Shown: positions 44,661 to 44,939 of the stretch, one piece after another
How positions within the stretch are numbered: position 1 is the first letter of the stretch
How the letters are laid out: each line of letters begins with the position of its first letter
Notes under the pieces: generated by a model
What the model saw: only the letters and a program-made list of their open reading frames with translations
Told to the model about the DNA's origin: nothing
Database searches by the model: none
Made by a program: the position numbers and the translations under genes
Assembly (NCBI RefSeq): GCF_003334785.1
Contig: NZ_QOWV01000004.1
Direction: 5' to 3' (one strand)
Length of the DNA: 64,000 nt
DNA from: Escherichia coli
Lineage (GTDB): Bacteria; Pseudomonadota; Gammaproteobacteria; Enterobacterales; Enterobacteriaceae

Positions 44661-44939
44661 ATGGAAAGTAATTTCATTGACTGGCATCCCGCTGACATCA
44701 TTGCGGGTTTGCGCAAGAAGGGAACGTCAATGGCGGCGGAATCTCGCAGAAATGGTTTGAGTTCCTCAACGCTGGCGAATGCATTATCGCGCCCATGGCC
44801 GAAAGGAGAGATGATTATTGCGAAAGCCCTGGGAACTGACCCCTGGGTTATCTGGCCATCACGCTACCATGATCCGCAGACCCATGAGTTTATCGACAGA
44901 ACGCAGTTGATGCGTAGCTACACTAAACCGAAAAAATGA
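44661..44939 (+). CDS. sfsB: Ner-like DNA-binding transcriptional regulator, 92 aa
   Basis: 92-aa ORF MESNFIDWHPADIIAGLRKKGTSMAAESRRNGLSSSTLANAL resembling phage Mu Ner. Confidence 0.9.
   Translation: MESNFIDWHPADIIAGLRKKGTSMAAESRRNGLSSSTLANALSRPWPKGEMIIAKALGTDPWVIWPSRYHDPQTHEFIDRTQLMRSYTKPKK

Follow-up and report, generated by a model that had tools for sequence, protein, structure and literature searches.

Ner of the transposable phages Mu and D108 is an early negative regulator whose gene lies between those of the c repressor and transposase A. Among host proteins likened to it, RdgB of Pectobacterium carotovorum (Liu et al. 1994) is reportedly a Ner/Nlp-like protein that acts as a host transcriptional activator of pectin lyase. 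Such a protein would give an earlier example of host genes being activated by a member of the Ner family. PMC6286560 lists the rdgA/rdgB system; its locus and the partner of RdgB, the repressor RdgA, differ from the setting of sfsB, and the two systems are likened here by description only. EnrR of Edwardsiella piscicida (PDB 7F9H/7F9I), a Ner-like nucleoid-associated H-NS antagonist, is a homologue of SfsB with approximately 49% identity.

Both the sfsB gene of Escherichia coli and the idea that it was recruited from a phage are already published, its phage ancestry having been noted since 1989–1992. Where PMC8987985 touches on this gene, citing Autexier & DuBow 1992, the recruitment of Ner as SfsB serves as a textbook example; the same passage relates that over-expression of SfsB stimulates the maltose (mal) genes and that over-expressed phage Ner can replace SfsB. 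The effect on the maltose genes is thus one of over-expression. RNA and protein data alike show sfsB up-regulated in Salmonella ST313 strain D23580. No SfsB binding sites or direct DNA targets are reported in the literature searched, and a 2025 preprint describes sfsB as 'partially characterized' and without earlier perturbation expression data. Of the transcription factors of E. coli K-12, SfsB is one of a small number still lacking both defined binding sites and a defined regulon. The literature thus agrees with a prediction made earlier for this stretch of DNA (the original prediction), according to which the regulon is poorly defined.

The locus described here was analysed within a 64-kb stretch of E. 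coli DNA, hereafter the window. The feature of interest corresponds to sfsB of E. coli K-12, an already known gene also named nlp ('Ner-like protein'; b3188; NF007670), from which it shows no differences. The 553 bp between the ispB and murA stop codons are 100% identical at the nucleotide level to E. coli K-12 MG1655, where the same CDS is annotated as 'sfsB: DNA-binding transcriptional regulator SfsB'. This 553-bp stretch is found in all 5426 complete E. coli genomes, with at least 95% identity in all except one. Across positions 32434..56986 of the window, to which the sequence comparison was confined, identity with MG1655 is 99.996%. The RefSeq annotation of the MG1655 stretch matching the whole window (yraJ to yhcC) contains no phage genes, only housekeeping and core genes. 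As ispB ends at 44433 and sfsB starts at 44661, the ispB-sfsB gap (44434..44660) is exactly 227 bp. A 92-aa open reading frame (ORF) between ispB and murA with 227 bp of upstream region, and with no phage gene nearby, is what the original prediction had described; the first point is borne out by the ORF coordinates and the second by the MG1655 annotation. The GC content of sfsB, 0.50, is native.

We consider it probable (roughly 0.85) that sfsB is a vertically inherited core gene descended from the ner gene of an ancient Mu-like prophage, and that it encodes a Ner-family DNA-binding regulator of host promoters. On this account it is a clean, datable case of a phage regulator fixed as a core host gene. 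The importance of the finding is modest: a named, annotated E. coli gene has been re-discovered. What is added here (family-level synteny, selection statistics, clade features, a promoter footprint and Mu c-like partners) refines a known story. The features on which the argument draws are collected in Table 1.

Table 1. Features of the sfsB region and of related loci. Positions are those of the window unless another locus is named.
Feature	Position	Strand	Description
ispB	43462..44433	+	5' neighbour of sfsB
GC-rich hairpin just 3' of the ispB stop	44444..44468	+	RNA fold -20.2 kcal/mol, z -4.5; stem conserved in 73 loci
Conserved upstream block	44536..44552	+	Contains TATTCTGA (44540-44547); fits BglJ-RcsB core motif wwTTCykA
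Sigma-70 promoter of sfsB	44573..44602	+	-35 TTTAGA 44573-44578, 18-bp spacer, -10 TATAGT 44597-44602; consensus scan
43-aa ORF, probably not a gene	44629..44760	+	Start lies 32 bp before that of sfsB; overlapping, different frame
Shine-Dalgarno region	44647..44656	+	AGGAGTGAGG; read from sequence, precedes ATG 44661; partly conserved
sfsB (nlp) CDS	44661..44939	+	ATG to TGA, 92 aa, Ner-family HTH_35 DNA-binding protein
GC-rich hairpin in the 47-bp sfsB/murA gap	44943..44984	both	Fold on +: -31.7 kcal/mol, z -5.0; on -: -25.0 kcal/mol, z -4.1
murA	44987..46246	-	Convergent with sfsB
RNA elements elsewhere in the window	20979..21150, 21380..21494, 23007..23077, 27776..27876, 38563..38684, 60329..60436		See text
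c-like genes, locus L075	2819..3217 and 3426..3812	-	HTH_Tnp_Mu_1, between ispB and sfsB-like gene
c-like genes, locus L078	2785..3165 and 3409..3795	-	HTH_Tnp_Mu_1, between ispB and sfsB-like gene
c-like region, locus L090	4001..5010	divergent	HTH_Tnp_Mu_1
c-like region, locus L092	4001..5024	divergent	HTH_Tnp_Mu_1
c-like region, locus L095 (Rouxiella)	2643..3008	divergent	HTH_Tnp_Mu_1
AT-rich DNA, locus L095 (Rouxiella)	3009..4000		GC 0.29, no called gene
SfsB-clade gene, locus L077 (Dickeya undicola)	4001..4267	+	Away from ispB
LuxR-type gene, locus L077 (Dickeya undicola)	2942..3643	-	Divergent from the SfsB-clade gene

A family profile search, one of the checks proposed for the original prediction, matches SfsB to the NCBIfam SfsB equivalog NF007670 with 204.6 bits (cut-off 150) over positions 1-92 of 92, and to Pfam HTH_35 (PF13693) at 1.3e-34 over model positions 1-74 of 75. 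SfsB also matches PHROG 769 ('transcriptional repressor') at 2e-29 and, among solved structures, Mu Ner (1NEQ; E 2e-22) and EnrR (7F9H; E 1.7e-17). With Ner of Mu and D108 (PDB 1NEQ/1NER), SfsB shares the HTH_35 family, the fold and a core that is 64% (Mu, over 64 aa) or 60% (D108) identical by BLASTP; identities to the Ners of Mu-like phages reach 71% for Vibrio and range from 68-71% across Shewanella and Vibrio. The AF2 model of SfsB has a mean pLDDT of 84.4 and is helical to residue 64 (segments 10-19, 24-30, 37-43, 47-57 and 61-64), with a short, low-confidence helix at 80-83 in a C-terminal stretch of 20 residues where confidence is lower. When this model is compared with the PDB using Foldseek, the top five matches are EnrR and Mu Ner, all with a probability of 1.00, and the next match has an E value of 0.06; for EnrR, TM scores normalised to the target are 0.84-0.94 and rmsd values 0.5-1.1 Å. 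The predicted fold of SfsB is a compact all-helical HTH like that of Mu Ner and EnrR. Given these strong family, PHROG and structure matches, the absence of significant similarity to Ner-family proteins can clearly be discarded, and the family resemblance first proposed for this ORF stands on the NCBIfam, PHROG, Pfam, 1NEQ and Foldseek results alike.

SfsB differs from the phage proteins in several respects. Unlike ner of Mu and D108, its gene stands alone in the core chromosome without the c, A and B genes. The protein has Pro10 where phage Ners carry Arg, and it ends in an extension of approximately 20 residues (Y[HY]DPxTxx[FL][IL]DRxx[LM]xR, then a basic tail) that is absent from them.

The two best 'phage' matches, with 87% and 86% identity (H9 and H10), were rejected as phage evidence. 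H10 (AGRM01000002.1) is a 691-kb Salmonella houtenae chromosomal contig on which the match is annotated 'sugar fermentation stimulation protein B', and H9 (OR851033.1) is an unannotated 3.2-kb record in a phage collection; from the nature of these records, both are most likely chromosomal sfsB orthologues filed as phage.

TTTAGA-18-TATAGT is the only promoter-like site that a consensus scan finds in the ispB-sfsB gap, and its -10 hexamer would place the transcription start near 44609. Identical hexamers and spacing are given for a constitutive sfsB promoter in a list from genome-wide RNA polymerase holoenzyme SELEX (PMC3946193). The sfsB promoter is activated by BglJ-RcsB through a site with the core motif wwTTCykA, centred 65-68 bp upstream of the start (PMC3950696). 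The conserved block that includes TATTCTGA has its centre approximately 66 bp upstream of the predicted start and is probably this mapped activator site. According to these studies, sfsB is transcribed from a constitutive sigma-70 promoter that the BglJ-RcsB heteromer activates further. When 73 distinct ispB-sfsB gaps of enterobacteria are aligned, conservation peaks at five places: the ispB hairpin, the BglJ-RcsB-like box, the -35 region, the -10 hexamer, and the ribosome binding site with the start codon.

Neither of the two GC-rich hairpins flanking sfsB was called by an intrinsic terminator scan, which returned nothing in 44300-45100; they were missed because they have no T-run, and were detected by folding. 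The first looks like a terminator-like element insulating sfsB from ispB transcription, and the second is probably a bidirectional 3'-end structure shared by sfsB and murA. The 43-aa ORF that overlaps the start of sfsB was rejected as a probable non-gene, since the 73 relatives show little conservation around its start. An Rfam scan finds no RNA family inside or adjoining sfsB; elsewhere in the window it matches SraG, the S15 leader, naRNA4, the rimP leader, the greA leader and ArcZ, and two tRNAs are also present.

The crystal structure of EnrR with DNA provides a guide to how SfsB may contact its targets. In EnrR, the contacts are made by R21, H29, R40, A45, R47, T48, N51, R55, Y57, R59 and R62, of which T48 makes a backbone contact, N51 positions an arginine and R55 is the base-reading arginine (PMC9023278). 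The aligned SfsB residues are, in the same order, P10, R18, R29, S34, S36, T37, N40, R44, W46, K48 and M51: four of the 11 are identical (R29 and the recognition-helix residues T37, N40 and R44), four are conservative replacements (R18, S34, W46, K48), and P10, S36 and M51 replace EnrR R21, R47 and R62. SfsB would accordingly be expected to bind DNA via its recognition helix, using the same HTH surface as EnrR with a specificity of its own, and once bound to modulate transcription of host promoters. As three of the 11 contact positions are changed, its specificity is not transferable from Ner or EnrR. The pattern ANYTARCTAAGT, which we take to be the Mu Ner operator consensus, has 22 matches in the window with at most two mismatches, against 30 expected, and so is not enriched; one of these, at chance level, falls in the ispB-sfsB gap, and no Mu Ner-type operator was detected upstream of sfsB.

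This structural kinship, together with the link to BglJ-RcsB, makes the main rival to our reading an attractive one: rather than a site-specific transcription factor, SfsB could be a nucleoid-associated protein of the EnrR kind, with broad binding to AT-rich, TpA-containing DNA, that counters H-NS silencing in the BglJ-RcsB/LeuO anti-silencing cascade. EnrR is the closest relative of SfsB solved with DNA and its best structural match; it is a competitor of H-NS that occupies AT-rich DNA globally (PMC9023278), and the pairing of its base-reading R55 with N51 is conserved in SfsB as R44 and N40. BglJ-RcsB, the activator of sfsB, relieves H-NS repression at other loci (PMC3950696), and in a phage-insensitive mutant of Erwinia amylovora sfsB falls together with T3SS genes, a correlation only, in a study that implicates Rcs. 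Two hallmarks of EnrR nevertheless fail in SfsB. EnrR is island-borne, whereas sfsB is a core gene with core synteny, a GC content of 0.50 and dS values like those of its neighbours; and in EnrR the conserved DW is preceded by 17 residues, its N-terminus being approximately 10 residues longer than that of Mu Ner, whereas SfsB has six and carries the clade-specific C-terminal extension instead. R47 and R21 of EnrR are not conserved, and no H-NS-related sfsB phenotype was found in the literature searched. We therefore regard an EnrR-like role as doubtful, although the EnrR structure does suggest a testable mechanism, H-NS counter-silencing, for a protein whose function has remained vague for more than 30 years.

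The EnrR study describes S. Typhimurium SL1344 as having no EnrR homologue (PMC9023278). The Salmonella genomes retrieved here carry sfsB/nlp, encoding a protein 86-87% identical to E. coli SfsB, which could matter when heterologous EnrR experiments are interpreted.

The reading of sfsB as a vertically inherited core gene is carried first by its conservation. The order rplU-ispB-sfsB-murA-ibaG is found in 68 of 80 retrieved species genomes, which span the Enterobacteriaceae and Erwiniaceae (Rosenbergiella, Tatumella and '[Erwinia] mediterraneensis'); most of the others are truncated loci. The ORF is intact in 5426 of 5426 E. coli genomes and in 80 of 80 other retrieved genomes. In comparisons with E. 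albertii, E. whittamii, Salmonella and Citrobacter, dN/dS for sfsB is 0.016-0.069. Its dS equals that of ispB and murA (e.g., 0.41 vs 0.45 and 0.41), while its dN is 2-4 times (or more) theirs. The shared dS indicates that the gene has been inherited jointly with its neighbours, under purifying selection.

Phylogeny, another check proposed at the outset, places the chromosomal homologues as one clade among the Ners of transposable phages. In a neighbour-joining (NJ) tree, 14 chromosomal homologues form a single clade with 92% bootstrap support, which groups with the Ners of Vibrio and Shewanella Mu-like phages (67% support) inside other phage Ners. The clade has derived characters: the C-terminal extension, and WH[PSTQ]AD instead of the WHRAD of phages. 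The tree was built by NJ only from 69 core columns, with few phage sequences and an arbitrary root, and we take it as supportive rather than decisive evidence for a phage origin.

The position of ner in phage genomes was compared with that of sfsB using eight transposable phages with hosts in Escherichia, Vibrio, Shewanella, Haemophilus, Ralstonia, Klebsiella and Pseudomonas. In each, ner lies approximately 1 kb from the left end and adjoins a divergent repressor. The order repressor(-)/ner(+)/transposase(+) is direct in seven of the eight; in RS138, ner is separated from the transposase gene by two others. The sfsB gene does not share this location: it has ispB and murA as neighbours, with no phage genes annotated across the 64 kb.

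Loci in sister families come closer to the phage arrangement. In Dickeya and Brenneria, two divergent genes encoding proteins of 126-132 aa precede an ispB-linked sfsB-like gene. These proteins match Pfam HTH_Tnp_Mu_1 ('Mu DNA-binding domain') at 2.6e-13 and, more weakly, a YfeC-like family. PHROG 7148 ('transcriptional repressor') and the N-terminal part of PHROG 310 ('transposase') are further matches, and identity to the c repressors of Mu and D108 and to the MuA N-terminus is 30-42%. We refer to these proteins and their genes as c-like. NCBIfam has no family for the c-like proteins of Pectobacteriaceae, and in a homologue search all c-like homologues bearing organism names come from Pectobacteriaceae. 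The layout rplU-ispB-[HTH_Tnp_Mu_1 x2]-HTH_35-mdh-argR is also present in Pectobacterium and Lonsdalea, and in Rouxiella (Yersiniaceae, one genome) a single-copy c-like gene lies beside the sfsB-like gene. No transposase was found at the ispB-linked loci of Pectobacteriaceae and Rouxiella. In the phage genomes inspected, a divergent c-type repressor beside ner typifies the early-control region of Mu and D108; judged by gene order and family assignment, the ispB loci of Pectobacteriaceae and Rouxiella reproduce this c/ner layout in a core-gene neighbourhood. The phage Ners nearest to SfsB are paired with CI/LexA-type repressors, not with Mu-c-type ones, which fits less well with the c-like partners in Pectobacteriaceae.

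Between the c-like and ner-like genes of Rouxiella lies approximately 1 kb of AT-rich DNA (Table 1).

From these loci a history of sfsB can be proposed. Its source would be the early-control module, a divergent c repressor plus ner, of a Mu-like transposable prophage inserted downstream of ispB before Enterobacteriaceae, Erwiniaceae, Pectobacteriaceae and Yersiniaceae diverged. All lineages would then have lost the genes for transposition and structure, and the c-like partner later in the branch leading to Enterobacteriaceae and Erwiniaceae. Pectobacteriaceae and Yersiniaceae, which retain Mu c-like partners, would represent an intermediate stage of domestication. An early c/ner insertion followed by loss of the c-like gene is the most economical reading; it is possible that the c-like genes were gained later instead, as parsimony is tied at one event either way. 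When the 227-bp gap of E. coli was searched for a c-like remnant by tblastn, no query (Mu c, D108 c, the c-like proteins of Dickeya and Brenneria, the N-terminus of MuA) produced a match below E 0.1. That sfsB is a domesticated phage regulator, as the original prediction suggested, is supported by synteny, purifying selection, native GC content, the single clade and the pairing with c-like genes.

A bolder proposal would join this history to the EnrR comparison: sfsB would be the last piece of an ancient Mu-like c/ner immunity module at ispB, whose c-like partners persist in Pectobacteriaceae and Yersiniaceae within a conserved regulatory cassette of two or three genes, while the E. coli orphan would act as an EnrR-like H-NS counter-silencer at AT-rich promoters, downstream of BglJ-RcsB. 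In a limited literature search we found no paper on a c-like/ner-like cassette at ispB or on an H-NS link for SfsB. We put the proposal forward tentatively, as one that is rather unlikely to hold in full.

Transfer in the reverse direction, in which Ner regulators are ancestral enterobacterial host genes captured by Mu-like phages, would accord with the age and wide distribution of the chromosomal gene in Enterobacterales and is allowed by the arbitrary root of the tree. It is very unlikely in the light of the comparisons above. Phages of Vibrio, Shewanella, Haemophilus, Ralstonia, Pseudomonas and Escherichia carry ner at the same place in the early operon, a host range much wider than that of the ispB-linked gene. 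The chromosomal homologues, by contrast, form a single derived clade marked by the C-terminal extension and WH[PSTQ]AD, and the present tree leans towards nesting this clade within phage sequences. The chromosomal locus of Pectobacteriaceae and Rouxiella also bears genes of the Mu c-repressor type.

The main targets of SfsB might instead be incoming Mu-like phages, whose early operators it would bind so as to alter the lysis-lysogeny decision or confer partial immunity. The DNA-binding core is 64-71% identical to phage Ners, and the substitution of phage Ner for SfsB in the maltose assay implies overlapping DNA specificity. We found no evidence for such a role in the literature searched, however, and both the conservation of sfsB across genera of very different phage exposure and its control by a host envelope-stress regulator (BglJ-RcsB, PMC3950696) point to a host role, so that an anti-Mu function appears highly improbable. 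That sfsB is a decaying, functionless prophage relic is effectively refuted by the selection and conservation data: although the gene is non-essential, with a deletion strain in routine use (PMC9842644) and no deletion phenotype found in the literature searched, its dN/dS of 0.02-0.07, its intact ORF in the 5426 E. coli and 80 other genomes, its conserved promoter, activator box and start codon, its regulated transcription and its detected protein all speak for a functioning gene.

In Enterobacteriaceae and Erwiniaceae, sfsB is followed by murA-ibaG-mla (the segment of the window used for comparison is 44940..46246), and in Pectobacteriaceae and Rouxiella the sfsB-like gene is followed by mdh-argR (loci L075, L078, L090-L092 and L095); these differences by family place a chromosomal rearrangement breakpoint directly after sfsB. 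Two further loci depart from the usual order. In Lelliottia sp. WAP21 (L027), no murA or ibaG is present within 4 kb after sfsB, and in Huaxiibacter chinensis (L029) murA is approximately 420 bp farther from sfsB than usual; in both, the sfsB/murA junction appears to carry an insertion or rearrangement.

A second gene of the SfsB clade is found in Dickeya undicola at a site distant from ispB and free of neighbouring phage genes, where it is divergent from a LuxR-type gene (Table 1). In Yersinia enterocolitica 8081, 'sfsB' (YE1026A) is divergent from the orphan LuxR gene ycoR (PMC6027161). Taken together, these two arrangements suggest that pairing of a Ner-like gene with a LuxR solo may recur.
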